Part shown: positions 21,001-64,000 of the stretch, one piece after another
Position numbering within the stretch: the first letter of the stretch is position 1
Layout: the number at the start of each line of letters is the position of its first letter
NCBI GenBank assembly: GCA_976226885.1
Contig: OZ320316.1
Coordinates: 66,464,001 to 66,528,000 of the forward strand
Length of the DNA: 64,000 nt
From: Iphione sp. A-MEVVRFRX5
Lineage: Eukaryota
Reading direction: 5' to 3'
The notes under the pieces: generated by a model
Database searches by the model: none
Told to the model about the DNA's origin: nothing
Seen by the model: the letters and a program-made list of their open reading frames with translations, nothing else
Translations under genes and position numbers: made by a program

Positions 21001-24000
21001 ACAGCACTATATGAAGATCTGAACCTCTAATGATTATATTTAATGAAGCACCCATTATATGGACCCGTCGATTGAAGTCAAATTGAAGACAGATGGCGCT
21101 AGTGAATATGACCTATATACGCTGGACCTCGGCAAGGGTTTCCAGTCTCTACCAAATCCTATGTAAATTCTGTCACTTTGACCTGCTGCAGCTGTCTTAT
21201 TTCTTAACAGAAATCTCTTAAAATTTGAACGAATAATCTTTAATACCTTATCTATATATATGCCAAACCATTTCTTCCTACCTTACAGAGTTTTTTCATG
21301 GCGACCTGAGAAAGATCACCCTCTTTCTTCTAATATGTCAGCTAAGCCATGTGCTCAATGTTTGCCGAGGTAGGACTGTCACTGCCCATGCGCAGAGCCC
21401 TAGTTACTATGGCAACAGGCCACACCTCTTCCGAAAGGGTAAAACATGCCTTGTAGTAACTTGAAAATCGACGGGTCCATTCAGTCACCGCAGACAACCA
21501 AATATTTTAAAATTTTAAAAAATTAAATACTGTATTGCGTCTTGGATTTGAGACTTGTCGCTTGGCCAGCATTTTTTGTTAATGCCAGTCTCTGTGAACC
21601 ATATGTATCAGAGTAAGTTTGGCTTTCCATGCACCCGGAAATGGCCTATGGAACACGGATGCAGAGGTCTGGAAATAAACAACCCTATGGTCTTCAATGT
21701 GAGTCTTTCCATGCGTCCACATCTATGAGTCAGTGTTCTGGGTCCAGAGACAAAAAACGGCCCTGGGCCGTAAATTTCTCCTGATTCCAGACCACAGACA
21801 CTCACACATACCAGTAGGATGGAGAGATGGGGGTTTTCAGCTGGATAGACACTGTCTAGCACATGATAGATGTTGTGAAATTTTTCATAATTTGCATATC
21901 ATTTGCATTAAAACTGAATGGTCAGAATTTTTTCTGACTGGTCCCAAAAACACAGTATTAACAGAATTGGGCAGAATTCTTTCTGATTGATAAAAAAAAA
22001 CACGCAGTTTTAACAGCACTGGGTGGAATTCTTTCTGATTGGTCACAAAAAACACACGGTTTTAACAGAATTGGGCATAATTCTTTCTTTAATGCTACTG
22101 ATATGCAAATAAAATATTTCACATCATCTAACATGTTAGCCAATTGTTTCCTCTCTCTATTTTCTGTACACATGGAAAGCACCTGTCGGGAGGGTCCATA
22201 AAATCAGCCGATTTCCGGACTGACTATGCTGTGTGGAGAAATCTCCGGATGCATGGAAAGCCGGCCTAAAGCATGACATCACTGGCCTCGGGGAAGACTC
22301 TGAGTAATTGTGATTTTTTTTCCACTGGGTGAAATATCAATTGCCATTTACATGTTGGATTTTAACAAAAGAAGTCTTCTACGGATCACCGGAAGAGTTA
22401 GCTTGGACCACAACAGTGGTGTGTTACCTGGGTGTCGGCAATAACTGTCGCCCTTTCTCCCCACCCGGTACACCTCGATCTAAATAACACCATACTGCGT
22501 AGGAACAATCCGTACTGCCAAATATACAATCTCTCGAGAGCTACACCGACCAGGACTTACATCAGCAGCAACCCTAGGTGCTGCCCAAATATAAGCTTGT
22601 TAAACAAAGCCCAAGAATGCCGGTGGGCCATTCGGGCTTCTTAAAAGGCGAGCACTCAATATTGTCTGGCAGACGCAGGGCCGCGCTGCAGTTACCGGTA
22701 ATCGACCGAGCCCCGCCGTATGCAGGCTTGAGTGCAGATATTGAAAAGCCTTGGGACTGCTAATATCAGCGGTTATATGACCTGGAAAAACGGCATGTGC
22801 ATGAGAAAAGAAACAAATTTAAGCTGTCACTGTCGCTGTAAATTCCTGAGGTGATTTAGGTAACAGTAAAATATTCATTATTTAATTTATCCGTCCAAGA
22901 ACATCTTAAACGGGAAGATTACCTCGCTCTTTTGTTATAGCATAGAGATGGGTACTTTTCTAATAACATGCAAATTTATACTTTCATATTTGAGTTGTTT
23001 ATAAGGAAGAAAATGCTTTACTACAGAACACTGACTTCTACCTGTGGCAATAACAGTACCTGTAAATCCCACACCGAATCTGCCTGGCACGGCCACAAAA
23101 AAAATAACAAAAACCCTTCATATCGAACCCTGGCCGCCCACCCTCAGGGCCAGTCGTCCCTATTGAAGACTACCCATTTCCGACCCTGTGTAGCCCGATG
23201 AAGGACACTGATACAGCGCTCTGGCAGCAGTGGAAAATTCCACGCGTTGTGCTCTACGGATCCGACCGAGTGTCGCCATGCGCACGCTGCACGCGCAGTC
23301 ACAGAAGCCAAGGGGAGCTGCCGTTTTTGTCTCAAGCCAGCATGCAGCGACGGTTACGTGGTTGGGGGCCTATTAGGTGGCCACAGAGAACCGATACTGC
23401 TACTGTTTGCTAGAAATAGTGTCACAATCACTTGGCAAAACATACCTTGCGTCCTGAGAGAAAAAGAAAAACATTTCATAGGGCAACTTGAATATGCCAA
23501 ATAACTGACAGAATAACATGCTGAATGTGCGCAAGCACTGCTGATATTCAGTGTTTCAATTACGTCTAAGGCACGCTAAGGAGATTACCTACGTGCATGG
23601 ACATGCACGTGATCGCACTGGGCGAAAAAACTGACGTCTACCGCGAATATTTCTTGAGAACATATAGGGGCCTACATGTCGTTTTACAATACAAAATAAA
23701 ATCCTTGACGGTCTCTTAATACTCAATATTCAACTCGGGCGATCTATATGTATAAATCACATAAAAGAAATGTCATAAGATATGGTGAGAAAATCGTGGA
23801 TATTCTTATAAAAAACAAAAGGTTCCCTGAAACATCAAAGCCAAAAATCCTGACAAAACAGAGGAGAAAGCAGTAGCTTGCGGGCAGAAGAAACATGGAT
23901 TCTGGCTAGTGATGACTCACAGACGTCTACGTAGACAATGCCAGATTCAGCATGTTGCCATGGCAACCGAGCCTACTGAACACAGTCGTCGTGCGCACTC

Positions 24001-36339: not shown

Positions 36340-37997
36340 AAGCATGTACACATAAAAATGAATTCTGAGCCTTATATATCATAGTTACAATACCAGCAGT
36401 CTCAGCTGTATTGGGGGTCAGTGCCTCGATGTCAAACGGCTGACCAACTTCAGCCCATTCTTCTAATCTGGGGGAAGAGGCTACTTTTATGACCTCCTCC
36501 ACAGAATATGTGTTGAACTTACTTGCCATTTTTGTATCCGTTTTACATCCTATCGTGTCAATGTCTGGAAGCGTGATCCCAATCCTTCCCCTAAGGGCAC
36601 CATTCAAGATGCCCACATCCAGTTTCCTCTGGTTATGCCAATTCTCTTGGCGTTCTTTATTACGCTTGTAACTACCCTCAAGTAGAACTTGAATATCCCC
36701 CTTGCGTCCTCATCGCCTGTTCTGCGCCAATCCATGAGTATTCTAGATTCTGCATTAGCTCCTTCATCTGCATTAGTTCCCCCGTACCTTCATCGATGGT
36801 ATAGCCCTCATAGTTCTTCTTCCTCATTCGCACCCTTGCTGGACACATTTTTCATGTAATTCCTTTTCAAGAGATATGTCCCAAGCCTCATCCGGTTTCC
36901 CCTTCATTTCGATCCCTTCTCCATCAGCCGGCCATGTAGGTCGTCGACACCCAATTTTTCCCATTGTCTGAATGCAAGCTGATGCACCTTTTGTTTCGTG
37001 GTGCCGTTCATTAAGACCATCAGGCCCCCCAAAAAATAAGGTGTGTTTCTGGTAACGGCCACCCAAAAACCTAAGTAGGGAGGGGGGTACCTTTTTTTTA
37101 AAATTTTCTTTCTACTTTCTTTCTCTGGTTTTTGATAATGATAAAGATAATATGAAGAATTTTGACCAATTTATAGTTTTTGCTGAATTTCCATGGATTT
37201 TATTGCTTTTCTACTGAATTTACAAAAACTATGTGCTGGTAAAACACACATCTAAGAAAATTCAGCCTTGGAATCTCTTTGGGGCCAAAAAATTTGTAGG
37301 TAGGGTGAGGTTTTACTAGGTAGGGGGGGGAGTTTACCAGAAACATGCCTATTGTTTTGGCCTCACCCTAGGAAGGTGGTCACTCAGTTGCCATGTCTTG
37401 ACTGTTACCACTCTTCTGCTGTCAAAATTCAACCAGATGTGATCCGGGCATGACCTCAAGCCCACAATTGTTGATTCATTTACTAGTTGGACAAAACAGT
37501 GGCTACCAAGGAGACTGCACAGTCCATACTCGCGCCACCTCCTTCAGCGAAATTTTAGTTGAAGTTGCCCATGATGGCAACATCTTTATGTGCCTACCGC
37601 TGCCTGCATAACTCTGATTCAGGCAACCATTTTCACATTTGGTGGTCGATATACCACAATCAAAAAGAGCGGTTTCCTCTTCCCTATTTTCAGATCTATG
37701 CCCAGTATTTCACACTCTGAGATTTGTTCAGAGTGGTTGGTGACTTGTTGGATGACCACTGAAATCTTTCGTACACACGAGGATCCCTCCACCTCTCTTC
37801 TTACTGAGAGATTGGCGATCCAGCCTGACTAGATTGTAGCCAGGTCGTCTCCACGGTCCATTGCCATGACTTGCCGTTAACCACGATTCAGTCAGACAGG
37901 CAATGCCAATGTCGTCCTCGATTAGGTGGTGACAAAGCTCATCCACCTTCTTCACTACACCCCTTATGTTGTAGTGTAGCAGGGACACACCCTTCAT
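36340..37997 (-). pseudogene. Decayed LINE (CR1/L2-like) ORF2 5' part: APE endonuclease plus linker, interrupted by a MITE
   Basis: Across frameshifts: HYNIRG, CLTESWL, DR...GGG, VVYRPP, IMGNFN, QLVNEST..DHI, LSDHLP; then FRQWEK..DL, KMASKFNTY and D-I..L linker motifs. RT core is missing. Confidence 0.85.
37023..37362 (+). mobile_element. 340-bp MITE (GGC termini, 3-bp TCA target duplication) inserted in the LINE ORF2
   Basis: TIR GGCCCCCCAAAAAATAAGGTGTGTTTCTGGTAA vs TTACCAGAAACATGCCTATTGTTTTGGCC; TCA at 37020-37022 and 37363-37365. Confidence 0.88.
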
Positions 37998-38883: not shown

Positions 38884-39222
38884 TAAAATACAGTGTTGAT
38901 TCTGTCCATCCTCCCACTATATTTGTCCAATACGTTGCTATTATTATATATCACTTTTTGGTGTATCATACTTGAAATGTGTCAAACATATTTTCTACAT
39001 AGGTCAAGGACAAAGTTTCACACCATAATTGTTTTCAGTTTCACAGGGTTTGAACTTAACGTTCATCTACTGACCATTATTCAACCGTGTTAAAGTACAT
39101 ATTGCTCCCATCAACTTGCTTGGGTGTATCATGTGAGCTCTATTGTTTTCAAATCGTCTGGCGAAGTCTTTGACTGGAAGAGGATTCGGGCTTACGCCGT
39201 CAGCTGTTTAACATATACATTT

Positions 39223-39568
39223 CAGGCCCATAGCCAGCAATTTTTGAGTGGGGTATCTCAAATTGGAGAGGTGGACCTCCTGGTTAGAGAGGTGGAACTC
39301 CTGGCGTGTGTTTTGCAAAGAGGAAAATTGGGTGCGAAATAGCATTGTTGCCTATTTGTTATGTAAAAATCAACTGATTTTCTCACATTTCCTCAGTTTT
39401 CCTCACTTCTGGTCACCAATGTATTTTTTCTCTGAGTGGACCTAATGACCCTTGTAGAGGTATTGGTCGATACTCCAGATATCCTTTTGGCTCAGGCCTG
39501 TCATTGTCACCGAGGTGGAACTCCTTGCCTTTGTGGGGGGTATCGGATGTTTCTTGGCTACGGGCTTG
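39223..39568. mobile_element. Non-autonomous TIR element (CAGGCCC(A/G)TAGCC termini), copy 1
   Basis: CAGGCCCATAGCC ... GGCTACGGGCTTG; internal GAGGTGGAACTCC repeats shared with copy 2. Confidence 0.65.
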
Positions 39569-39770
39569 TATTTCATGTATTTGTCCATTTTATAAACCTT
39601 CGTTTACCCTTCTTTGGGCTATTACTCATAACCAAATATAGTTGTCTCGGCGTTCGCCTCGCAGGGGAAATACACTTGAAGCACCATCTAAGTCAAGCCC
39701 GTAGCCAGGAAGTCTTATGGCGGGTATCTCAAATTAAAGAGGTGGAACTCTTATCTAGAGAGGCGGAACT

Positions 39771-39918
39771 NNNNNNNNNNNNNNNNNNNNNNNNNNNNNN
39801 NNNNNNNNNNNNNNNNNNNNNNNNNNNNNNNNNNNNNNNNNNNNNNNNNNNNNNNNNNNNNNNNNNNNNNNNNNNNNNNNNNNNNNNNNNNNNNNNNNNN
39901 NNNNNNNNNNNNNNNNNN
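39771..39918. other. Assembly gap (148 N)
   Basis: Direct reading. Confidence 1.
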
Positions 39919-39931
39919 TCATGATATATAG

Positions 39932-40230
39932 GGCCCCCCCCAAAAGGTGTGTTTCTGGTAACAGCCAGCCAAAAACCTAGGTAGGGAGGTTTTTTTTTTT
40001 AATTATTTTCTTCCGACTTTTTCACTGGTTTTCAAAGATAATAAAGACAATATGAATAATTTTGACCAATGTGCATGAGTTTCACAGTTTTTGGTTGAAT
40101 CTCCATGGATTTTATTGATTTTCTACTGAATTTAGCAAAAATATACAGCATGAAAACACATATCTAAGGAAATTCAGCTTTGCAAACTCTTTACGGCCAA
40201 CCAGAAACACACCTATATTTTTGGGGGGCC
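39932..40230 (+). mobile_element. ~300-bp MITE, same family as 37023-37362
   Basis: Colinear similarity through the body (AAAAACCTAGGTAGGGAGG, TTTGACCAAT, CCATGGATTTTATTG); TIRs GGCCCCCCCCAAAAGGTGTGTTTCTGG vs CCAGAAACACACCTATATTTTTGGGGGGCC. Confidence 0.85.
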
Positions 40231-43459: not shown

Positions 43460-44460
43460 CTGTAGATTCCAAACAATGCTTAGCCCCGAGGGAATAGCCA
43501 TTTATAATCGTTGAATCCATCTCTTTTACACCATTTCCCTTTCTTTTTGATAATCCATTAATGGAGGGGTTCTTAGGAACTTTATGATTGAGATGGAGAC
43601 TCCATTCCATCCTGCCCCTTTCGCGGGTGGACATTGATTCATGTGTTGCACTATAGTCGTATCTGAATGGTGAAGGATATCATATTTGTGGTTACTGAAG
43701 CATTCTGCAATGGTTTGTTGTGTTTGTCTGTACTGGGTACCGCATGTAGTGCAAGTAATCAAATATATTAAGTTGTTGCTCCTGCAGCTGACATTGTAAG
43801 TGTGTATCGGCTCTTTGGTAGTGCGGCATATGCCTTGGCCACTTCTATTGAGCTTGAGGCAGTATTTGCAATTGGTTTTTGATTTGCAGGGGTTTGCAGG
43901 GCCCTTGTGAGTGGTGTTTGTCTCATTAGTGAGTGTTGGGAGTTTGGCCCATACTAGGCTATCACTGATTTTTTTGTTCCGGCGTTTGCCAAAGATTAAG
44001 CGGGTTTGTGTTAGAAACGGAGTCCCCTTCACTTTGTTCAGGTCTTCCCAGTGTTTGGTGATAATTCTTTGGAGTGGGGGATTGGTTGGGTTATGGTCAA
44101 CAATTATGAATAGTTTTTGTTCCTCTTTTTCTTCTCCTGTATTTATGCGGCTTTTTGGTTGTAGTAGGCTTGCTCTGTTAATCATGGCTACCCGTAGGAT
44201 GGATTTCTCAATAAGGTTGGAGGGATATTCTCTTCTGGATAGGTCCTAGTACAGTAGCATTGCATGTTCCAGAAAGTCCTCTTCGCTGCGGCAAATTTTT
44301 CACAGACGTAATAGTTGTGAGTATGGGATTGAGTTCTGACAGCTTGTTGGGTGACATGATGTATGTAATAGGTAATTCTAGTCCGTGGGTTTCTAATAGA
44401 CGGTGGTGTAGATTTGTCCCTGGTTGCTGATGCGGACTCTCGTTTGAGAGCTATGAGAGC
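43460..44460 (-). pseudogene. Penelope-like retroelement 3' fragment: RT thumb, linker and GIY-YIG endonuclease
   Basis: GQIYTTVY*KPTD*NYLLHTSCHP..CQNSIPYSQLLRL*KIC; KR(G)YP-like; PCKSKTNCKYC; VSCRSNNLIYLITCTTCGTQY; H..DI; HMN; KRE...WIQRL...PSGLS. Several stops and frameshifts. Confidence 0.9.
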
Positions 44461-53014: not shown

Positions 53015-53030
53015 CTACAAGAAACAATAT

Positions 53031-53341
53031 TGTAACGTCCGCTCCGCAAGTACGACATAACTCCAGTTAAGATAAAGAGGTTTATTCAGTAAGAACAATA
53101 TGAGCATAAGCAGTGAGCACCAACAGTGAGCACCAAAGGTAATCTGAACTGCCCGGGTGGGCCAACTCCCTTATATACCCACCCCCAGTCTCCTCAGCAT
53201 CCGGGTACCGGACCCCTCATACTCCGCAGCACCCCTTCGAGTGCTGCACGGGGGCGTGCCACTGCACCCCACCAGTCCAATCCACTGTGTCGCAGCACCC
53301 CTGGTGTGCCGCGGTGCCGCAGCCACGCAGTGGCTCCAACA
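53031..53341 (-). repeat. 3' LTR, 311 bp (TGTTGGAG...GACGTTACA)
   Basis: TGT...ACA termini; directly follows the PPT; TATATAA at 53177-53171 and AATAAA at 53086-53081. The partner LTR is outside the window, so it cannot be confirmed. Confidence 0.82.
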
Positions 53342-53355
53342 TTGCCCTCCCCTTA
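53342..53355 (-). promoter_or_regulatory. Polypurine tract (TAAGGGGAGGGCAA)
   Basis: Purine run abutting the TGT start of the LTR. Confidence 0.8.
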
Positions 53356-53532: not shown

Positions 53533-56500
53533 TCACAGGTAAACCGTCCATGACTCGCGGATGTGGACTTCCACGTTGCCCCCGGCGGTGGGCTCCTCCC
53601 GCCACGTGGACAGAAGCCGCACTGGACGGCCCCGCGTCAGTACCGTCCCGTAGTTGGCGTACCATGTGGCCAGCTCGCTGCCTGGGACCGGCACCCCAAG
53701 TCGTCGGAAGGTGACGGTCTGCCGGAGGACGACCTTCACCTGCCCGGCGGTGAGCACCTGCACATCCAAAGCCGAGGAGTTAGAAATGACCATCCACCCG
53801 GGTGGTAGGGTGGATTCTGGTGACACCAAACGTGATGCCGCCCAGACGTACACGGCGGCCGGAACCTCTTCCTCCGCTCCTGACGAGCCTGACACGTCTT
53901 GCAGGGATGCTCCCGTCCCAGGGGTTGGCCAGGCCGACCAAGGTACGCTGGGAGGTGCGGGCGGGCCAGAGGGGAGGTTTGGCCGCGTCCCCCACCCCCC
54001 CGGCCCCGGGAGCGCCGGTGGCCCCAGCGCAAGGGAGGGGCCCGAGGGAGGGCGTGCCCCGCGGCCAGGGCCCGGTGTCGGGCCGCGCGGACGCCCTCCT
54101 GGCGATGCTGCTGCTGTTGGATCCTCCCAAGGTCTGACGGGGGCCACTCCGCGGGGGCTCGCTCTTCCCTCGCCTCCTGAGGTTCCCGGGGTGGATGTGA
54201 AAGGGGGCCCCCGTCCGCGACCCCTTGTGGTCTCTCCAGCCGTCACAGGCACGCCGGCCCCGCCTTGCTTCTTTCGGGGTCCTTCCGGCCGAGTTATCCC
54301 CGGTACTGGGGACGTGCCCTGACCTCGGGTCCGCCCTGCGGACCAGCTCCCTCTCCCTCGCGAGGGCGGCGGCACCAGCTGGAGATGAAGTGGAGGGGCC
54401 CGACGCACCCCCTCCGCCGGCCCCCTAGGCTCTCTAGGCCGCTCTGGGCTCGCCGTCACTTCGGTGGCGTCTTCTTGTCGACTTCCAGTCGGTACTTCCT
54501 CGGGGGTCGTGCTTGTGGCTGGGCTGGCGGCGGGGCTGGTGGCTGGCCCAACCCCTTCTGTTGTGGCTACCTCGTCCCCTGTCGGCCCACTGGGCTCGTG
54601 TGTCCGCCCTGGGCCCGGCGTCACCTCTTCGCCTCTCCGCTCCAGGGTGGTTGGAATGTTCCGCTGGCTCTCCGCTGGCGCCTCTACGATGATCGGGCTC
54701 ACGGCTGAACTGGCCGTGAGGTCGGGAGTTGGGCCGGCCCCCTCGGTGGCAGTAAGGTTGGGTATCACGCCGCCACCCGGGCTCTCCTCCGTCTCCGCCT
54801 CCTTCTGCGTCACGGAAGTTGGGACCTCTTCCTGCTGCGGACTCTCCGGAGGTCTTGCCGTGATTCCCACTGTGTCTGCGTCGTTGGTCCCCAGAGGCAC
54901 CCTCGGTTCCGTGGGCATGGTTGGCTGGGGACCCCTGGAATCAGTGTCTGGCACGGGTGAGCTGTGCGGGCGCAGGGCCGTGCCGTCGGAGGGGGGCTCC
55001 GGCTCCTCCTCGGAGGATTCCTCCTCAAAGAGGGTCTCCAGCTCCTGGTCCTCCTCACCGTCGTCCCCGGGGGCCTGCCCCTCACTCGAGGACCCGTGTG
55101 TCATGGTCGGGCCTGTGGTCAAGGGCTCCCCGGCTGGGTCAGCCTCCGCGGCCCCCCCCAATCTCGGCTTCTTGGCTGGCGACGGTGTGATGGACCCAGG
55201 CGGTGTTACAAGGTCTACCACGTCTCCCTCCACCGGCCGTTCCCAACCTACGCCTAGGCGTTCGTCCAGCCGACGTTCGTCTTCTTCCCACGATGGCGCT
55301 CCACTCGGGGTCCCTGGCCTGGGCTCCCTGCGACGGTCGGGGGCACCCCTGCCCATGCCAGGGAGGCGACATGGGGGTGACAGCCCGACAGACCGGGCCG
55401 TGGGGGAGGCCCGGAAGGTCGCTCGCACTCCCACCTGGCGAGTCCCCGCTGCACCGGAGAGTCCGGACAATCCCTCGGCCCTCGGCTCCACGGTCGTTAC
55501 CCGGGGCAGGGTCACCTGCAGTTGTGGGGGAGGCTCGTCAGCCGACGTCTGGCTAGCTGAGTCCAGGAACAGTCTGTGTCCCTTGTAGTGCGACGCCCCG
55601 GCAGGCAGGTCTATGTTGTCGGGCGTGGCTACCTCTGGCCATGGTGGGGGGGCGTCCCGTCCTTCTTTTTCTCGGGAAGGGGGGCGGTGCGATCTCGCAT
55701 ACGTGCGAGTGGCCAAACGCTGGTCCAAGCGGGGCGGGGATCCCGATCCCCCACTGCCCTGACTGTCTCCCGTCGCGGCTCCCGTGGAGCCAGTGTGCTG
55801 GCCTAGGGCTTCCTGGGGCGAGGGCTCGGCCGTGGAAGGGGTGCTGCCATCCCCCGCCCCGTCGGGGGTTCCTGTGCCGCGATCCGACGTCTGACCGGAG
55901 ACGGGGGACCCCCCTCCCTTGCTGTCTGGCGGGAGATCGGGCATGGCCGACGCTGGAGGCCCGGGGGCGCGATGGTCAGGCCCCTCCTCGCGAAGGACGC
56001 TGGCCGCCCATTCCTTCACCAAGCGCCGCGCCTCGTCTGTGGAAGAGTCCCGGCCCGAGCTGCTACTAGGCGGGGGACCCGGTGGGGTATGCGGTCCTTG
56101 GTGTGGGGCATCCTCTGAGCGGCCCGTCCCTCGTCCCTCCAGAGCAACAGTAGTACCCTCGGCGCCAGGAGGGCGTGGCGGTGCCCCCTTATCCGGTTCC
56201 GGTGCCCCTGTGGTTGCGGGCGGTGGGGGGGGTCCGGCGCAACTGCTCCCACTCTGGTCGGCGTCCCCGGTCATGGTCTCCTCCCCACCCAGGGGGCCCG
56301 ACGACACTGTCCGGGATACCACTCCCGGCGCCCGGGCAGACGGCAGGGCACTCTCCTCCGACGAACTGGGAGGGGGATCCCTCCGTTGTCGGGTGGACGC
56401 TCCTCGTCGCCGTCGTGCCTTCCGGGTCCCCCCGATTGCTCGGGGTCCCGACGGGGTCGACGCGCCAGTAGACGTCGACGGCTGCACTGGCGGTGGCTCC

Positions 56501-57087
56501 GCCCAGTCCTCTGGCTGCTTGGCCGATGGACCGGCTTCGGGCCCTTGCTGCCGCTGGGTTGCAGCCCCTGGGATGGCTGCGGAGGGTCCCTCTGCTCGGT
56601 TGTCGCTACCTTCTTCCGGCGTAGCGGAGCGCCCTCTTTTCTTACTGCTTCGCTTGGAGGCCCCTCTATGCGTCGGGAGTCGGCCCGCCGCCCTGCGGGC
56701 CCGGGCTCGCATCTCCACCTTATCGGCCGGGCAGAGACGCGGCTCCCCGTAGGTGGGGTTGAGACCCCAGAACCGCAGGTACTGGAGGTCCACTGTCAGG
56801 GCCCAATCGTTGGGTTCGTGGACCCCATTCAGGTGCCGCTTCCAGTCGGTGTGCCGGTGGAAGGCTTGTTGCTCACACTCGGGGTCGGGGCACAGCCAGC
56901 CCAATCCCTCAGGCGCGTGCACATCTTTCAGGTGGCGGTGCAGGTTGGACGGCTGTGTGAACGTGGACGCACAGCGGGAGCAGCGGTGACGGCGCTCCTC
57001 CGGGGCACCTGGTTCCTCCTCGCCAGAGGACCCCGAGTCATCGCTCCCAGCGTCGGGTGGGGGGGCGTCCTCTGGTGCGTCAGCCAT
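53533..57087 (-). CDS. Retrotransposon accessory ORF3, 1184 aa: two C2H2 zinc fingers, long P/G/S/T/E-rich disordered region, unknown C-terminal domain
   Basis: Uninterrupted 3555-nt frame from ATG 57087 (GACGACATGG; the track starts at an upstream GTG). Fingers CSRCASTFTQPSNLHRHLKDVH and CPDPECEQQAFHRHTDWKRHLNGVH at 56982-56818. No signal peptide or TM segment. Confidence 0.85.
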   Translation of the reverse strand: MADAPEDAPPPDAGSDDSGSSGEEEPGAPEERRHRCSRCASTFTQPSNLHRHLKDVHAPEGLGWLCPDPECEQQAFHRHTDWKRHLNGVHEPNDWALTVDLQYLRFWGLNPTYGEPRLCPADKVEMRARARRAAGRLPTHRGASKRSSKKRGRSATPEEGSDNRAEGPSAAIPGAATQRQQGPEAGPSAKQPEDWAEPPPVQPSTSTGASTPSGPRAIGGTRKARRRRGASTRQRRDPPPSSSEESALPSARAPGVVSRTVSSGPLGGEETMTGDADQSGSSCAGPPPPPATTGAPEPDKGAPPRPPGAEGTTVALEGRGTGRSEDAPHQGPHTPPGPPPSSSSGRDSSTDEARRLVKEWAASVLREEGPDHRAPGPPASAMPDLPPDSKGGGSPVSGQTSDRGTGTPDGAGDGSTPSTAEPSPQEALGQHTGSTGAATGDSQGSGGSGSPPRLDQRLATRTYARSHRPPSREKEGRDAPPPWPEVATPDNIDLPAGASHYKGHRLFLDSASQTSADEPPPQLQVTLPRVTTVEPRAEGLSGLSGAAGTRQVGVRATFRASPTARSVGLSPPCRLPGMGRGAPDRRREPRPGTPSGAPSWEEDERRLDERLGVGWERPVEGDVVDLVTPPGSITPSPAKKPRLGGAAEADPAGEPLTTGPTMTHGSSSEGQAPGDDGEEDQELETLFEEESSEEEPEPPSDGTALRPHSSPVPDTDSRGPQPTMPTEPRVPLGTNDADTVGITARPPESPQQEEVPTSVTQKEAETEESPGGGVIPNLTATEGAGPTPDLTASSAVSPIIVEAPAESQRNIPTTLERRGEEVTPGPGRTHEPSGPTGDEVATTEGVGPATSPAASPATSTTPEEVPTGSRQEDATEVTASPERPREPRGPAEGVRRAPPLHLQLVPPPSRGRGSWSAGRTRGQGTSPVPGITRPEGPRKKQGGAGVPVTAGETTRGRGRGPPFTSTPGTSGGEGRASPRGVAPVRPWEDPTAAASPGGRPRGPTPGPGRGARPPSGPSLALGPPALPGPGGWGTRPNLPSGPPAPPSVPWSAWPTPGTGASLQDVSGSSGAEEEVPAAVYVWAASRLVSPESTLPPGWMVISNSSALDVQVLTAGQVKVVLRQTVTFRRLGVPVPGSELATWYANYGTVLTRGRPVRLLSTWREEPTAGGNVEVHIRESWTVYL

Positions 57088-57463: not shown

Positions 57464-57476
57464 CTGCGGAAGAAAG
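57464..57476 (-). promoter_or_regulatory. Candidate splice acceptor for an ORF3 subgenomic mRNA (CCTTTCTTCCGCAG|)
   Basis: Pyrimidine tract plus CAG ending at 57464; no ATG on minus between 57463 and the ORF3 ATG. Confidence 0.5.
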
Positions 57477-57752
57477 GTACCCATGAGAGTAACGGTTCCA
57501 GGTAGTTCCCTCCGCAGCGGCGACAGGTTTACCACACATTTCATCGAAAAACAAGGGTGCATCACGACCTTCGCCGCTCACCCAGCGCGGCTTTCTCCCG
57601 TTACCCCGGTTATCGCCCATGTGTGCTGCTACCAACGGTAGGTTCCTCACCTCGTGCTGCCGCGGCGAATCCCTCGTCGAAGTCAGACGTTGAGCGGCAG
57701 CGGCTTCTCTTCTGTCGCCGCGGCCCCGGGTCGATGTTCTCTGGTCGGTGGG

Positions 57753-60700
57753 CTAAGGTGCGTTCTGTCGGCGCTCGACACGTGTTGCGTGGATCACGAC
57801 GCTGTGGATCGTGTGGTGTCGCTCGGGTGCAGCTTCCTGCGGCTCCCCTGGCGCCGCCTGGAGACTAGCGGTCGAATCACGCGGTATTGCGGTTGACGGG
57901 GTGGGGCCCAGCGCGCTGCCTCTTATATGCTGAGATGCGGCTGCGGCGCCCTCTATCGGCATGGCGTAACTGTGCGGCCTTGCGGCTTCCTCCTGGGCCC
58001 GCTGCACCTCGTCCTGTGCCGCTGCGGCCTCCTGAACGCCGCACGTTACTTGGGGGTCGAGATGGGCGATCTTCAGGCGATCTGCATGAACTACTCTCTG
58101 CCGATGTCCACGACTGACTCGGTACACCACTTCGGACAACGCCTTCTCCATGGTCCAAGGCCCCTCCCACCAACTCTGCAACTTCGGGGAGATTCCCTTC
58201 TTACAGGCCGGGGTGAAAAGCCAGACTCGGTCGCCCTCGGCGTACCGTTGGTGCCTCACCCCTCGGTTGTACCAGTCCTTCTGTTGTGCTGCCACACGAC
58301 TCAGCTTCTCTGCTACTTTCTCATGCGCCCGGCGGACCTCTTCCGCTATCCGGCTCGCGTATTCCCCACGATCCACCAGGGGTGGGGCCGGGCCACCATA
58401 GCGCAGCTCCACTGGCAGCGTCACCTCTCGGTGCAACAACGTCTGGTTCGGTGATTCCCCCGTGGCGTTGTGGGGGGTGGCCCGGTAGGCGGCCATCACG
58501 AACGGCAGGGCTTGGTCCCAGTCCTTCCGGCGCTCCTCGGCTAGCGTGCCCAGCATGTTCCCCAACGTGCGATTAAATCGCTCGACTACCCCATCACTCT
58601 GGGGGTGGTAGGGGGTGGTGCGGGATTTCCACGAACAGCGCCGCCTCAAAATTACGGCCCTGGTCCGAATGGAGTACCCGTGGGGGGCCGAAACGGCAGA
58701 CCACTTCCCTAACGATGATGTCTGCTGTGGCCGCCGCGGTGGCCTCTTCAAGAGGGAACCCCTCCGTCCACTTCGAGAAGTGGTCGGCCACTACCAGGAT
58801 GTACCTGTTTCCCCTCTCCGTCACAGGAAGCGGCCCCAAGATGTCTGCCGCCAGCACTTCCCATGGCTCCGACACGGGGCGTCCTTGCAGGTGGGCCCGG
58901 TGGCGCCTCCCCGGCCCCTTCCTTTGTTGGCATGCCTGACAGCACTGGGACCAGCGTGCAACGTCGCGCGACATCCCGGGCCAAAACCAGCGCCGGCGCA
59001 GCGCTGCTCCAGTCTTCTCTGGACCAAGGTGGCCACCCACCGGGCCTGCGTGGGTCTCCTGCCAGAGGCTCTTCCGTATGGCCCGGGGGACATAGGTCTG
59101 AGGGAGCCTCTGCCGGTCCTCCTCTTCCCAAAGGCACACCAGTGCTCCCGATCGGAGCTCGAGTCTCGGGCCTTCCGCTCTGAGCTGTCTTTCTTCCCAG
59201 GTCAATCCAGCCCGCAGTCCAGGGAGGGGCCCCCCTTCCTCCAGCGCTTGGATGAGCTCGCCTGTTGCCGGTTCCATCCTCTGCATCTGGCACACATCTG
59301 GACCACCCTCCACTCCGGCGATGCCTACCGCCTCCGCACTCTCGGACCCCAGGTCTCGCCGGCCGCACTGCTTGCATTCTTGCCGTGATAGTCCGTCTGC
59401 GTTACCATGGCGTTTCCCTGGCCGGTGCGTGATCCGGAGGTCATGACAGAAGACCTCCTCCAACCACCTGGCCAGCTGACCCTGTGGTTCGTGGAAGTTG
59501 CACAGCCAGCGCAAGGAATCGTGGTCGGTGCGGATGTCAATGGCCCGGCCCCCCACATAGCATCTAAACTTCCGGAGGGCGAACACCACTGCCAAGAGTT
59601 CCTTCCTCGTAACGCAATAGTTCCGCTCGGGGCGGGTCAGTGTGCGGCTGGCGTAGGCTAGCACCCGCTCACGCCCTTCCTGCACTTGAGACAACACCGC
59701 ACCGATGCCAGTGTCGGAAGCATCGGTGTCCAGGAGCAGCTGCCCCACGGGTGTCGGATAACCCAGGATGGGGGTAGTGGACAGCCGGGCCTTCAGCTGT
59801 TCGAAGGCTTCTTGACAGGCCTGGGACCACTCAAACTCCCGCTCTGCTCCAGCCAGGGCATGCAGGGGTGCCGCTAGGGTGGCAAACCCTTCCACAAAGC
59901 TGCGGTAGTACGAGCAGAGTCCTAGAAAGCTTCGGAGTTCTGCTGCACACCGAGGGCGGGGCCATCGCGAGACGGCCCTGATCTTCTCTGGGTCGACCCC
60001 CACTCCTTCCGCCGAGACCCGATGGCCCAGGTATGCCACCTCTCGCTGGAATAGTTGACACTTGGATGCTTTGACGCGGAGTCCGGCCCCAATCAGCCTC
60101 TGGAATACCGTGCCGAGTCGGGTGCACATCTCCTCCACCGAGCGGCCCAGGACGATCACATCGTCAAGGTACACTAAACACTCGGTGCCCACGAGGCCCC
60201 GCAGTACAGACTCCATAAGCCGCTCAAAGGTGGAGGGTGCGTTGCAGAGACCGAACGGCATTACCCGGAACTGGTAAAGGCCGTTCGGGGTGCATACCGC
60301 CGTCTTTTCTGCGTCCGCCAGCTCCATCTCGACCTGCCAGTAACCGCTGGCCAGGTCGATCGCCGAAAAATACTGGCTACCCTGCAGAGCATCGAGGGTG
60401 TCGTCTATCCAGGGGAGGGGGAACGCGTCCTTCTTGGTGATGGCGTTGAGTTTGCGATAGTCGATGCAGAACCGTAGACCCCCATCCTTCTTTTGTACGA
60501 GCACCAACGGAGATGCCCATGGACTTGTGGAGGGCTCCAGCACCCCCTTCTGCACCATCTTGTCTACCTCCGCGCGAACTGCCTCCCTCTTGTGAGGGGG
60601 GAGGCGCCTTGCTCGTTGACGAATGGGTGGGAGACCCTGGGTGTCGATGCGATGTCGGACTTCCGGGGTACGGCCGAGCGGACCGCTGGCTGTCTGGAAG

Positions 60701-61603
60701 ACCTCGCGATGGCGCCGTAGCATGGCCGCTGCCGCTCCGGGTCGGTGGTCTCTACCGGTAGTTGCCCTAGCAAGTACTCTACAGCTTGCTCTTGCTCTGC
60801 CTCCACCTGCTCCTGGGGAGCCTCGGGTGGTCCAAGCACCGCGGCGACCTGACGGAGCTCGGCCAACCGGGTTCCCTCGAAGACTCGTGTCGCCTGGGAG
60901 CCGGGGTTCCACACTGGAACCCACACCCTCCCCTCCTGAGGTCGTACCAGCGCGCGAGCCACTCGTAGCCCCGAGCGTGACTCGAACCTGGCGTCAGGCT
61001 CCGCCAACCCTTCCAAAGAGTCGACCCCTCCTTGACACGCCTTCGCCTGAACCCAGCCTATTCCTCCCGCAGGAATCTCTTGACTGCCGCTGGCTCGCAG
61101 GGTGGCCGCCCATTCACGGTTGCCGGGCCAAACAGTGACCGTGGCCTCCCTCGTATCTACTGTTGCCGCCCACCGATCCAGCCAGTCCAAGCCGAGCAGA
61201 CCCGGTATCTCCATCTCTACCACGATGGCCACCACCTGTAGGGTGACCCCTGCGAACCGAACTTCGCAATCCACCAGCCCCAATACTTGTAGGGCGCTGC
61301 CATCCACTCCGAAGACTCGCGCCCCGCCGGGTCCAACGACACCCCCTGTAGTTCTCGGTAGGTCCGTGCAGAGAGGAGGGAAGCGGAGGCTCCTGTGTCC
61401 ACCAGCCAGTCCACCACCTGTCCGCCGACTTCTCCCTCTAGCAATACTCCCCGGCACCCCGTCCTCCTCCTTCCCTGCAGTACCCTCCTTGGCTCCCCCT
61501 TGACGGCAGCGACCATCGCCTCCAAGGGGGGTCCCAGGCCGGGTGGTATGGAATCAGAGGCCGCCCGCCCTACTGAGCCGGGGCGGGCGGCTTCTCGTTT
61601 TCC
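57753..61603 (-). pseudogene. Gypsy pol (PR-RT-RNaseH-IN), copy A, disrupted
   Basis: LVDTGAS; PWASPLVLV, RFCIDYRKLN, MPFGL, YLDD (60171-60160); DTDAS, NYCVTRKELLAVV, TDH; HHCC zinc finger, ADILGP, SDQGRNFE, SDGVVERFN, WEGPW. Frame broken by a 1-bp deletion (~61322), a 7-bp deletion (~60730) and a deletion in IN (~58610). Confidence 0.95.
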
Positions 61604-61973
61604 GGCTGCACTAGAGCAACGTCGGCGGTGTTCTCGGCTGCCTTCCGTACCTGGCAGTCCCGCTTGAAGTGCCCGGGCTCCTTGCAGTAAAAGCATCCTT
61701 CGTTGTTCGCGCGCTTCCCGCCTCGCCTAACGGGGGAAGCGGTTGTTGCGGGCTGCTCCAGTAGCTTGGACAGGAGCTGCTCAATGCGCTCCAATCCGGT
61801 CGTTGTCTTGGCGTCGTGGCTGGCCACCGCCACCTCTTGAGATTCGGCCTGTGCCGCATAGACACGCGTCGCCCCAGCCCCCGGGCTGCGCTCCTTCTCG
61901 GCGTGGTGGTACGACTCGGCCAAGAGCGCCTCCGAGATGGCTGCCTGAAAGGACCGGGCCTTAGCTTGCACGA
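61570..61973 (-). pseudogene. gag C-terminal part with CCHC knuckle, copy A
   Basis: GCFYCKEPGHFKRDC (CX2CX4HX4C); stop TAG at 61572-61570. Confidence 0.9.
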
Positions 61974-63284
61974 CGTCTTTTCTGCGTCCGCCGGCTCCAT
62001 CTCGACCTGCCAGTAACCGCTGGCCAGGTCGATCGCCGAAAAATACTGGCTACCCTGCAGAGCATCGAGGGTGTCGTCTATCCGGGGGAGGGGGAACGCG
62101 TCCTTCTTGGTGATGGCGTTGAGTTTGCGATAGTCGATGCAGAACCGTAGCCCCCCATCCTTCTTTTGTACGAGCACCAACGGAGATGCCCATGGACTTG
62201 TGGAGGGCTCCAGCACCCCCTTCTGCACCATCTTGTCTACCTCCGCGCGAACTGCCTCCCTCTTGTGAGGGGGGAGGCGCCTTGCTCGTTGACGAATGGG
62301 TGGGTGACCCTGGGTGTCGATGCGATGTCGGACTTCCGGGGTACGGCCGAGCAGACCGCTGGCTGTCTGGAAGACCTCGCGATGGCGCCGTAGCATGGCC
62401 GCTATCTGCTGCCGCTCCGGGTCGGTGGTCTCTACCGGTAGTTGCCCTAGCAAGTACTCTACAGCTTGCTCTTGCTCTGCCTCCACCTGCTCCTGGGGAG
62501 CCTCGGGTGGTCCAAGCACCGCGGCGACCTGACGGAGCTCGGCCAACCGGGTTCCCTCGAAGACTCGTGTCGCCTGGGAGCCGGGGTTCCACACTGGAAC
62601 CCACACCCTCCCCTCCTGAGTTCGTACCAGCGCGCGAGCCACTCGTAGCCCCGAGCGTGACTCGAACCTGGCGTCAGGCTCCGCCAACCCTTCCAAAGAG
62701 TCGACCCCTCCTTGACACGCCTTCGCCTGAACCCAGCCTATTCCTCCCGCAGGAATCTCTTGACTGCCGCTGGCTCGCAGGGTGGCCGCCCATTCACGGT
62801 TGCCGGGCCAAACAGTGACCGTGGCCTCCCTCGTATCTACTGTTGCCGCCCACCGATCCAGCCAGTCCAAGCCGAGCAGACCCGGTATCTCCATCTCTAC
62901 CACGATGGCCACCACCTGTAGGGTGACCCCTGCGAACCGAACTTCGCAATCCACCAGCCCCAATACTTGTAGGGCGCTGCCATCCACTCCGAAGACTCGC
63001 GCCCCCGCCGGGTCCAACGACACCCCCTGTAGTTCTCGGTAGGTCTGTGCCGAGAGGAGGGAAGCGGAGGCTCCTGTGTCCACCAGCCAGTCCACCACCT
63101 GTCCGCCGACTTCTCCCTCTAGCAATACTCCCCGGCACCCCGTCCTCCTCCTTCCCTGCAGTACCCTCCTTGGCTCCCCCTTGACGGCAGCGACCATCGC
63201 CTCCAAGGGGGGTCCCAGGCCGGGTGGTATGGAATCAGAGGCCGCCCGCCCTACTGAGCCGGGGCGGGCGGCTTCTCGTTTTCC
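61974..63284 (-). pseudogene. pol PR plus RT N-terminal half, copy B (frame intact, truncated at ...EPADAEKT)
   Basis: Open frame in the 61611..63377 ORF; RT is cut at the junction 61973/61974 and runs on into out-of-frame gag. Confidence 0.92.
63241..63284 (-). promoter_or_regulatory. Candidate gag-pol -1 ribosomal frameshift signal (also at 61560-61603)
   Basis: pol is in the -1 frame relative to gag; G GAA AAC heptamer, 5-nt spacer, perfect 11-bp stem GCCGCCCGCCC/GGGCGGGCGGC with a 10-nt loop. Confidence 0.7.
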
Positions 63285-63654
63285 GGCTGCACTAGAGCAA
63301 CGTCGGCGGTGTTCTCGGCTGCCTTCCGTACCTGGCAGTCCCGCTTGAAGTGCCCGGGCTCCTTGCAGTAAAAGCATCCTTCGTTGTTCGCGCGCTTCCC
63401 GCCTCGCCTAACGGGGGAAGCGGTTGTTGCGGGCTGCTCCAGTAGCTTGGACAGGAGCTGCTCAATGCGCTCCAATCCGGTCGTTGTCTTGGCGTCGTGG
63501 CTGGCCACCGCCACCTCTTGAGATTCGGCCTGTGCCGCATAGACACGCGTCGCCCCAGCCCCCGGGCTGCGCTCCTTCTCGGCGTGGTGGTACGACTCGG
63601 CCAAGAGCGCCTCCGAGATGGCTGCCTGAAAGGACCGGGCCTTAGCTTGCACGA
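63251..63654 (-). pseudogene. gag C-terminal part with CCHC knuckle, copy B
   Basis: Identical to 61570-61973 at a 1681-bp offset. Confidence 0.9.
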
Positions 63655-64000
63655 CGTCTTTTCTGCGTCCGCCGGCTCCATCTCGACCTGCCAGTAACCG
63701 CTGGCCAGGTCGATCGCCGAAAAATACTGGCTACCCTGCAGAGCATCGAGGGTGTCGTCTATCCGGGGGAGGGGGAACGCGTCCTTCTTGGTGATGGCGT
63801 TGAGTTTGCGATAGTCGATGCAGAACCGTAGCCCCCCATCCTTCTTTTGTACGAGCACCAACGGAGATGCCCATGGACTTGTGGAGGGCTCCAGCACCCC
63901 CTTCTGCACCATCTTGTCTACCTCCGCGCGAACTGCCTCCCTCTTGTGAGGGGGGAGGCGCCTTGCTCGTTGACGAATGGGTGGGTGACCCTGGGTGTCG

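Follow-up and report, generated by a model that had tools for sequence, protein, structure and literature searches.

A two-finger C2H2 protein behind the integrase of a Ty3/Gypsy retrotransposon of Iphione sp.: a candidate regulator of its own element

Introduction

Long terminal repeat (LTR) retrotransposons are usually taken to depend on the transcription factors of their hosts, although complex retroviruses (Tas) and plant DNA transposons (VANC) are known to encode sequence-specific regulators of their own. Here we describe a Ty3/Gypsy element in a 64,000-nucleotide (nt) stretch of the genome of Iphione sp. A-MEVVRFRX5 (GCA_976226885.1, contig OZ320316.1, positions 66,464,001 to 66,528,000; hereafter the window), which carries, in the position of an env gene, a coding region for a protein with two C2H2 zinc fingers. 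The evidence supports a native, conserved, non-env, element-encoded DNA-binding factor, and on balance we think it probable, from the signals in the DNA, that this protein is made from an internal-promoter RNA behind integrase and binds a GCGG-core word in the pol-finger linker and the LTR, likely activating itself.

In foamy viruses the accessory DNA-binding protein Tas (Bel1) is encoded near the 3' end, is made under an internal promoter and works through repeated elements that stand both in this promoter and in the LTR, and its transcript contains an intron (PMC13220597). The element described here has a predicted layout of the same kind. Foamy viruses are Retroviridae with the promoter in env and Tas in a separate open reading frame (ORF), whereas this is a Gypsy element without env whose C2H2 fingers lie in the pol frame and whose feedback is one that we infer. 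By analogy it likely works like the Tas system, without being a member of the foamy viruses.

Cer1, also of Gypsy/Ty3, has a non-env ORF in the env position and in the polyprotein frame, and its product CERV is made from a spliced RNA and is a nuclear self-regulator; CERV is spliced from gag exons, contains a cysteine loop that is possibly a C4 finger, and exports RNA (PMC10309623). Unlike CERV, the protein here has C2H2 fingers, the evidence points to DNA as its target, and no conserved donor of the env-type splicing kind was found in the 5' leader in the 10 that were read of 12 fetched 5' ends. Tor of Oikopleura resembles our element in having a third gene under an internal promoter in or behind pol, but that gene encodes a membrane Env glycoprotein (PMC4402516). 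CERV shows that a regulator can stand at the env position within the polyprotein frame, and Tor that a promoter can lie behind pol; both serve as precedents here.

In chromoviruses, too, integrase is extended in frame past its GPY/F motif, there by a chromodomain (PMC2774666); in our element a Pfam scan of the extension gave no chromodomain, the extension is 1,200-1,550 amino acids (aa) long with start signals of its own, and no targeting signal was found. VANC of the Arabidopsis VANDAL elements is an element-encoded protein paired with short motifs that recur within its own family, and protein and motif change together (PMC5735166); unlike our element, VANDALs are DNA transposons, their protein is unrelated, and demethylation has been shown for it (PMC5735166). 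The third ORF of errantivirus-like elements encodes an envelope, and differs from the present coding region, in which neither signal nor anchor was found and which forms a single frame with pol. Other non-env types of third ORF are listed in PMC5408684. A full-text literature search, outside which lay Repbase, Dfam and most subscription papers, found no description of an animal Gypsy element with a C2H2 regulator, and term look-ups in PMC13524379, PMC13228809 and the preprint 10.64898/2026.08.24.746577 returned nothing on one.

Results

The zinc-finger protein

The coding region and its parts in the window are as follows.

53533..57087, minus strand: zinc-finger protein coding region, 1,184 aa, sharing the pol frame in unbroken copies
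56917..56982, minus strand: C2H2 finger 1, helix Q(-1), N(3), R(6), predicted triplet GAA
56818..56892, minus strand: C2H2 finger 2, helix R(-1), D(3), R(6), predicted triplet GCG
56728..56817, minus strand: folded extension after finger 2, 30 residues, with D, F, G, N, P, C and P invariant in 13 rows of the alignment
53902..56680, minus strand: low-complexity, predicted disordered region with short conserved motifs, ratio of nonsynonymous to synonymous substitution rates (dN/dS) 0.17-0.37
53536..53901, minus strand: conserved alpha/beta tail domain, about 110-120 aa

A sequence-only reading of this DNA had proposed a 1,184-aa frame in the env position with two tandem fingers, a short folded extension, a long disordered stretch and a globular tail, and this architecture was borne out. 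Translation from ATG to stop gave 1,184 aa (1,251 aa from stop to stop), and the finger spacings are those that had been proposed, C36-x2-C39-x12-H52-x4-H57 and C66-x4-C71-x13-H85-x4-H90 (residues 36-57 and 66-90). Both fingers have the classical C2H2 pattern (C-x2-4-C-x12-13-H-x3-5-H, F and L/W core, finger fold), and the predicted structure of the region shows two finger helices. Pfam zf-C2H2 was the top family in 13 of 13 aligned finger regions scanned alone (best E 1.3e-7); the window copy's own finger region gave E 0.002, below the cut-off, and a Pfam scan of the whole 1,184-aa protein gave no match. The base-contacting finger residues are invariant or nearly so in the 13 rows. Residues 136-1062 (about 930) are rich in P, G, S, A, T, R and E, and the tail is predicted to fold with a predicted local distance difference test score (pLDDT) of 88. 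No hydrophobic segment was found (maximum Kyte-Doolittle value over 19 residues 0.89, N-terminus -1.09), in agreement with the proposed lack of a signal peptide and a transmembrane anchor. The patch KRSSKKRGRS, which had been put forward as the basic element, is not the conserved one; that is a basic helix directly after the finger extension, which is 12 residues short in the window copy only (1 of 27 scored copies).

Searches beyond the genome found the finger pattern and little else. The finger region as a single query gave 41 candidates, none at E<=0.001, and a finger profile search gave 26 generic C2H2 proteins among 4,056 candidates, with matches that cover the generic finger pattern only; finger matches in Atlas were generic C2H2 clusters, and the tail had nothing there at 0.9 or above. 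Metagenome and viral contig scans gave no relative. The idea that the protein belongs to no known env or accessory family and is no captured host zinc-finger exon is consistent with these matches and with the lack of env features. Two matches of the tail profile among 1.84 billion representatives were both repeat proteins with multiple weak stretches and were taken as spurious, and a weak lipase match of the tail among PDB sequences (E 0.005) was rejected. Fold searches with the tail gave no match at E<=0.001; the best structural match, to a phage tail-completion protein (Z 7.3, root-mean-square deviation 3.8, 94 aligned), lies inside the range of common arrangements, and these searches establish neither a new fold nor a known one.

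Conservation with pol

We distinguished eight subfamilies, which we label A to H, with the window copy in A. Fingers and tail accompany the pol clade across all eight, whose reverse transcriptase (RT)-integrase regions differ by 15-45%. Among 16 integrase matches without an initial finger match, fingers were present in 15 and the tail in 14, and when the genome was searched for the GPY/F family (5,681 candidates, of which 150 were scored), 20 copies picked from the result had fingers in 20/20 and the tail in 19/20. Pairwise dN/dS over 11 pairs was 0.03-0.14 for RT, RNase H and integrase together. For the fingers plus extension it was 0.02-0.06 in 8 pairs and 0.22 in one, with two saturated, and for the tail 0.03-0.14 in 9, again with two saturated; the disordered part gave 0.17-0.37 and the linker between integrase and fingers 0.29-0.67. 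By these ratios, mostly 0.02-0.09 and not near 1, the fingers and tail are under purifying selection, like RT. The selection, the spread over eight subfamilies and the constant link with pol mark this as a functional gene and agree with the sequence-only reading in making it native to the element and not a recent capture.

One frame with pol

A finger search of the 1.18-Gb genome (150 of 2,778 candidates scored) returned many fingers in open frames of more than 2,300 aa, and 39 copies, picked for long frames, were fetched. In 39/39 the GPY/F module of integrase and the fingers lie in a single frame, and in 21 of them this frame begins in the protease region and reaches the tail without interruption (2,366-2,742 aa); GPY/F to fingers was also open in 22 of the 30 nearest copies, which were not picked for length. 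The integrase-to-tail frame is open in 11/11 subfamily representatives, and the other two linker frames hold 7-21 stops each. At the DNA level the finger region is an extension of Pol, and the separate, intact ORF that the sequence-only reading saw is due to damage in the window copy, whose frame is stopped at about 57.75 kb and broken again at about 57.3 kb. At the protein level a separate third protein is still likely right, given an ATG that comes first after a conserved splice acceptor and a drop of dN/dS at that point, both described below. Since the frame is open through the linker, unspliced full-length RNA would also yield a Pol-finger fusion, and our preferred guess at the role of this fusion is that it carries the factor along with the new DNA copy. 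The linker of subfamily E (L048, L060, L124) shows a tandem expansion of units of about 50-60 nt in which the pol frame is kept open.

Predicted internal promoter and intron

57464..57650, minus strand: predicted GT-AG intron, 187 nt, GAG/GTGAGG ... CTTTCTTCCGCAG/, inside the pol-finger linker
57922..57927, minus strand: TATA box of the predicted internal promoter
57946..57954, minus strand: CTCF-like core AGAGGGCGC, 27 nt upstream of the TATA box

In all 27 copies of subfamilies A-E a consensus donor stands at the same place. It precedes finger 1 by 400-670 nt and is followed by an acceptor after 148-487 nt, and subfamily F has the same layout with the donor CAG/GTAGG (7/7). The first ATG past the best acceptor sits in the finger frame in 25/27 copies and in the window is the ATG of the 1,184-aa ORF. 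Over four pooled pairs, dN/dS is 0.52-0.62 in three upstream parts of the linker and 0.14 from this ATG to finger 1. The predicted leader is free of ATG over 2,082 nt, whereas the other linker sequence has 30 in 2,703 nt (seven copies; the comparison is partly circular for two, in which the start was so defined). A TATA box 190-330 nt upstream of the donor was found in 16/27 copies and in none of 51 kb of control coding sequence, and what we take to be the CTCF-like core is present in 22/27. In subfamily H the fingers hold the first ATG, and CCAAT together with TATATAAG lies some 300 nt upstream (4/4); in subfamily G CCAAT and a TATA-like word were seen by eye. The absence of introns that had been claimed for the gene holds for its coding part and fails upstream, where the conserved intron lies in the predicted leader.

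No intron-less genomic copy was found, all 31 exon-end matches continuing with GT into the intron, as is expected since spliced RNA would have no primer-binding site. Within the intron the codons of a KPRW motif vary at their third positions, which suggests that unspliced RNA is also read through it. In subfamily D, reading on across the donor in frame ends at a stop codon that overlaps the ATG of the finger protein (10/10), which hints at a short integrase as a possible product of spliced full-length RNA. Candidate acceptors after the stop codon, by which the whole extension would be spliced out, were not conserved in place and were set aside. A word TG[AG]G[CT]GATA occurs 19-37 nt downstream of the donor in 14/14 copies checked, even where the protein motif is lost (window about 57605-57620, minus strand), and is possibly a GATA site or a splicing element.

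The GCGG-core word and the finger helices

57101..58043, no strand: cluster of the TGCGG[CA] word in the linker, with 18 of the 25 sites between 53031 and 58200

Among 5-mers in the U3 region TGCGG leads in nine copies from subfamilies A-E (33, shuffles 6.5; 9/9 copies), and TGCGGC is the second 6-mer there (23 vs 2.6). In the linker of the same copies TGCGGC is the first 6-mer (80 vs 13.9), often as part of the palindrome GCCGCWGCGGC; it shows no enrichment in RT-integrase (18 vs 17.6), and host DNA has few (0.12 per kb). On the protein side, R(-1), D(3) and R(6) of finger 2 are kept in all eight subfamilies, and N(3) and R(6) of finger 1 in all except F. Designed helices RSDDLVR, RSDNLVR and QSSNLVR pair with GCG, GAG and GAA (PMC5260015, PMC7317221). 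A site GCG-GAN was predicted after the A-E repeats had been found and before the data for F, G and H. The subfamily H helices RKANLIR and RRDDFRR resemble the designed RSDNLVR (GAG) and RSDDLVR (GCG), giving the predicted site GCGGAG, and GCGGAG ranks first among 6-mers in the H U3 (3 in 70 nt) and the H linker (13 vs 1.5) and does not do so in H RT-integrase. The U3 of subfamily G has GCGGA 3 times vs 0.2. In subfamily F, where finger 1 is changed and lacks N3 and R6, the U3 is without TGCGG and has GTGC[AT] repeats instead. This suggests, with quite good probability, that the finger pair binds the element's own word, whatever the sign of the effect.

A second finger-bearing group of Pol relatives

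Of 374 long relatives of the element's Pol the best 120 were examined, the named ones being from animals. Within these 120, 21 (e.g. P0056, P0063, P0100) also have an in-frame extension after integrase with KPxW, a Met, two fingers, an acidic disordered stretch and a beta-rich tail. They differ from the window lineage in a first finger of C2HC type, an extension of 225-450 aa and a tail that is not alignable (hhalign probability 1%). RT-integrase trees keep the two groups apart (approximately unbiased test p 1e-4, subject to bias in composition and to the group having been named once the first tree was known); they were made by a quick method, and 9 of the 120 proteins were left out of the first tree for short alignments. 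From this separation, a second origin is likely. Two other related Pol proteins continue differently: P0113 has a different in-frame extension, presumably a macro domain, and P0145 runs into an env-like stretch.

The element and the window copy

53027..53030, minus strand: target-site duplication ATAT, 4 base pairs (bp), with an identical four bases ahead of the 5' LTR
53031..53341, minus strand: 3' LTR, 311 bp, TG...CA, with U3 at about 53180-53341 carrying a GC-word cluster and TATATAA near 53177
53342..53354, minus strand: polypurine tract
57756..58790, minus strand: end of the integrase core and GPY/F module (Integrase_p58_C), cut off from the upstream pol frame in the window copy
58594..60993, minus strand: RT, RNase H, integrase H2C2 and start of the integrase core
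60298..64000, on to G000:C10:66529336, minus strand: three head-to-tail 1.68-kb units with the gag end and its CCHC knuckle, protease and RT start

The element is a member of Ty3/Gypsy and is not an env-bearing Gypsy, a chromovirus or a foamy virus: it has TG...CA LTRs, a target duplication, a primer-binding site and a polypurine tract, a gag with a CCHC knuckle, and the order protease, RT, RNase H, integrase with a GPY/F module. The 3' LTR is 97.4% identical to the 5' LTR (G000:C10:66530368-66530678). Its GC content is 60-71%, and that of the finger coding region likewise, against about 40% in the host, which agrees with the shared GC bias noted in the sequence-only reading; CpG observed/expected is 0.82 in the element and 0.63 in the host. 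The window copy is decayed, with breaks in protease and integrase besides the two already mentioned, and its linker offset was found in 1/29 sibling copies. The 1.68-kb tandem units inside pol are 98-99% alike and run past the window edge, and this threefold repeat could be a real tandem duplication, as private damage of the copy, or an assembly artefact or feature.

Just 5' of the gag stop most subfamilies have G GAA AAC (GGGAAAC in subfamily D) followed by GC-rich stems (window about 63270-63285, minus strand; L101-L112), which we take to be a likely -1 frameshift site for gag-pol. Outside the element the window holds a 239-aa open stretch (43526-44245, minus strand) which has no Pfam match and which we assume to be the end of a Penelope-type element with a GIY-YIG-like motif, an N stretch of 148 bases (39771-39918), three 52-nt tandem copies of a small host repeat (21946-22101), and dispersed direct repeat pairs in host DNA (37038-37232 with 39944-40144; 39222-39299 with 39693-39770).

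Discussion

The scheme that we favour is that basal transcription from the internal promoter in the linker would give a short RNA, from which the finger protein would be made from its own ATG; the protein would then bind the clustered GCGG-core word in the linker promoter and in U3, and binding would raise transcription of both the finger gene and the genomic RNA, a feedback loop such as Tas forms in foamy viruses (PMC13220597). The sequence-only reading had offered an LTR trans-activator, an anti-silencing factor or an integration tether, and among these the trans-activator is best supported, because the helix-predicted word is clustered in U3 and the internal promoter and changes with the helices; the effect would then likely be activation (or anti-silencing) rather than repression.

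Several observations weigh against this scheme. The main misfit is that the helices of A, B, C and E, the window copy included, predict GCG-GAN, whereas the common word is GCGGC, D being mixed; the fifth base being mostly C and not A in these four subfamilies, the code fits four of five bases. The A-E repeats were already known when the prediction was derived, the change in F happened once, in one lineage, GTGCGG/TGCGGT leads in the pol-finger linker of one G copy, the linker between the fingers is longer than canonical, and the GC-rich words may be sites for host factors. Regarding the promoter, the TATA box is missing in 11/27 copies (most of D and all of E) and patchy in F, and subfamilies G and H are without the consensus intron. 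Intron length modulo 3 is constant in 26/27 copies, and this is due to the open pol frame and no independent evidence for splicing. The codons of the linker are mildly constrained, which suggests that the unspliced fusion is also used, and the firing of the promoter and the splicing of the intron are predictions from signals in the DNA.

The same word and promoter signals would also serve a finger protein that binds its own word and represses, as a copy-number control, or shields the element from silencing like VANC, with no direct activation. The word holds a CpG in a CpG-poor host and the targets of VANC are repeated element-specific motifs (PMC5735166), but domain scans of the protein gave no repressor or chromatin-enzyme domain, and we think this account rather unlikely; the evidence in itself fits repression, activation and anti-silencing alike. 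Unlikely too, in our view, is that the fingers are an appendage of integrase, acting in the fusion to steer insertion or to hold the LTR ends of the new DNA copy. The single open frame from integrase to tail in the representatives, open from integrase to fingers in most of the unselected copies, the place after the GPY/F module where chromodomains sit (PMC2774666) and the presence of the word in both LTRs are all consistent with it, and the in-frame fusion makes a tether possible, but insertion sites gave a tether no support. Target duplications are 4 bp and plain xTAx in 18/20 sites (a small sample from one subfamily), and 35 AT-rich flanks, also of one subfamily, carry the word at 0.29 per kb in the nearest 100 nt and at 0.26-0.67 per kb beyond, close to the host density of 0.31. 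An appendage would, moreover, leave unexplained the TATA box, the intron, the ATG-free leader and the step in constraint at the ATG.

A protein acting on RNA, which like CERV or Rev would protect or export unspliced genomic RNA, with the palindromic GC words as RNA structures, has its precedent in the Cer1 ORF, which lies in the env position and the polyprotein frame, is expressed by splicing and acts in the export of genomic RNA (PMC10309623). RNA binding is known for C2H2 fingers (TFIIIA was among the matches) and the linker words are often palindromic; against this, the helices show the R/D/R and N/R pattern typical of DNA reading, with a matching word in H, and in U3 the word is crowded ahead of the TATA box, which is a promoter position, and we consider an RNA factor quite improbable. 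The env position and the generic similarity to host C2H2 proteins would fit a functionless sequence, either the remains of an envelope gene or a zinc-finger exon lately captured from the host, but strong purifying selection largely refutes this, neither signal nor membrane segment was found, the region is present in eight diverged subfamilies and its database matches extend over the generic finger pattern only, and it is very improbable indeed.

More widely, and as a tentative possibility only, an animal Gypsy lineage may have independently evolved a two-promoter switch in the style of foamy viruses, in which the fingers co-evolve with their word and a factor in the Pol frame arrives with each new copy, and a second Gypsy clade, in other genomes, may have come to this layout separately. 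If this is true, the regulation of complex retroviruses would have arisen without env, and the usual picture, in which C2H2 proteins are weapons of the host against such elements, would be reversed. The eight subfamilies would then be eight natural finger-word pairs within one genome, on which the idea is directly testable.

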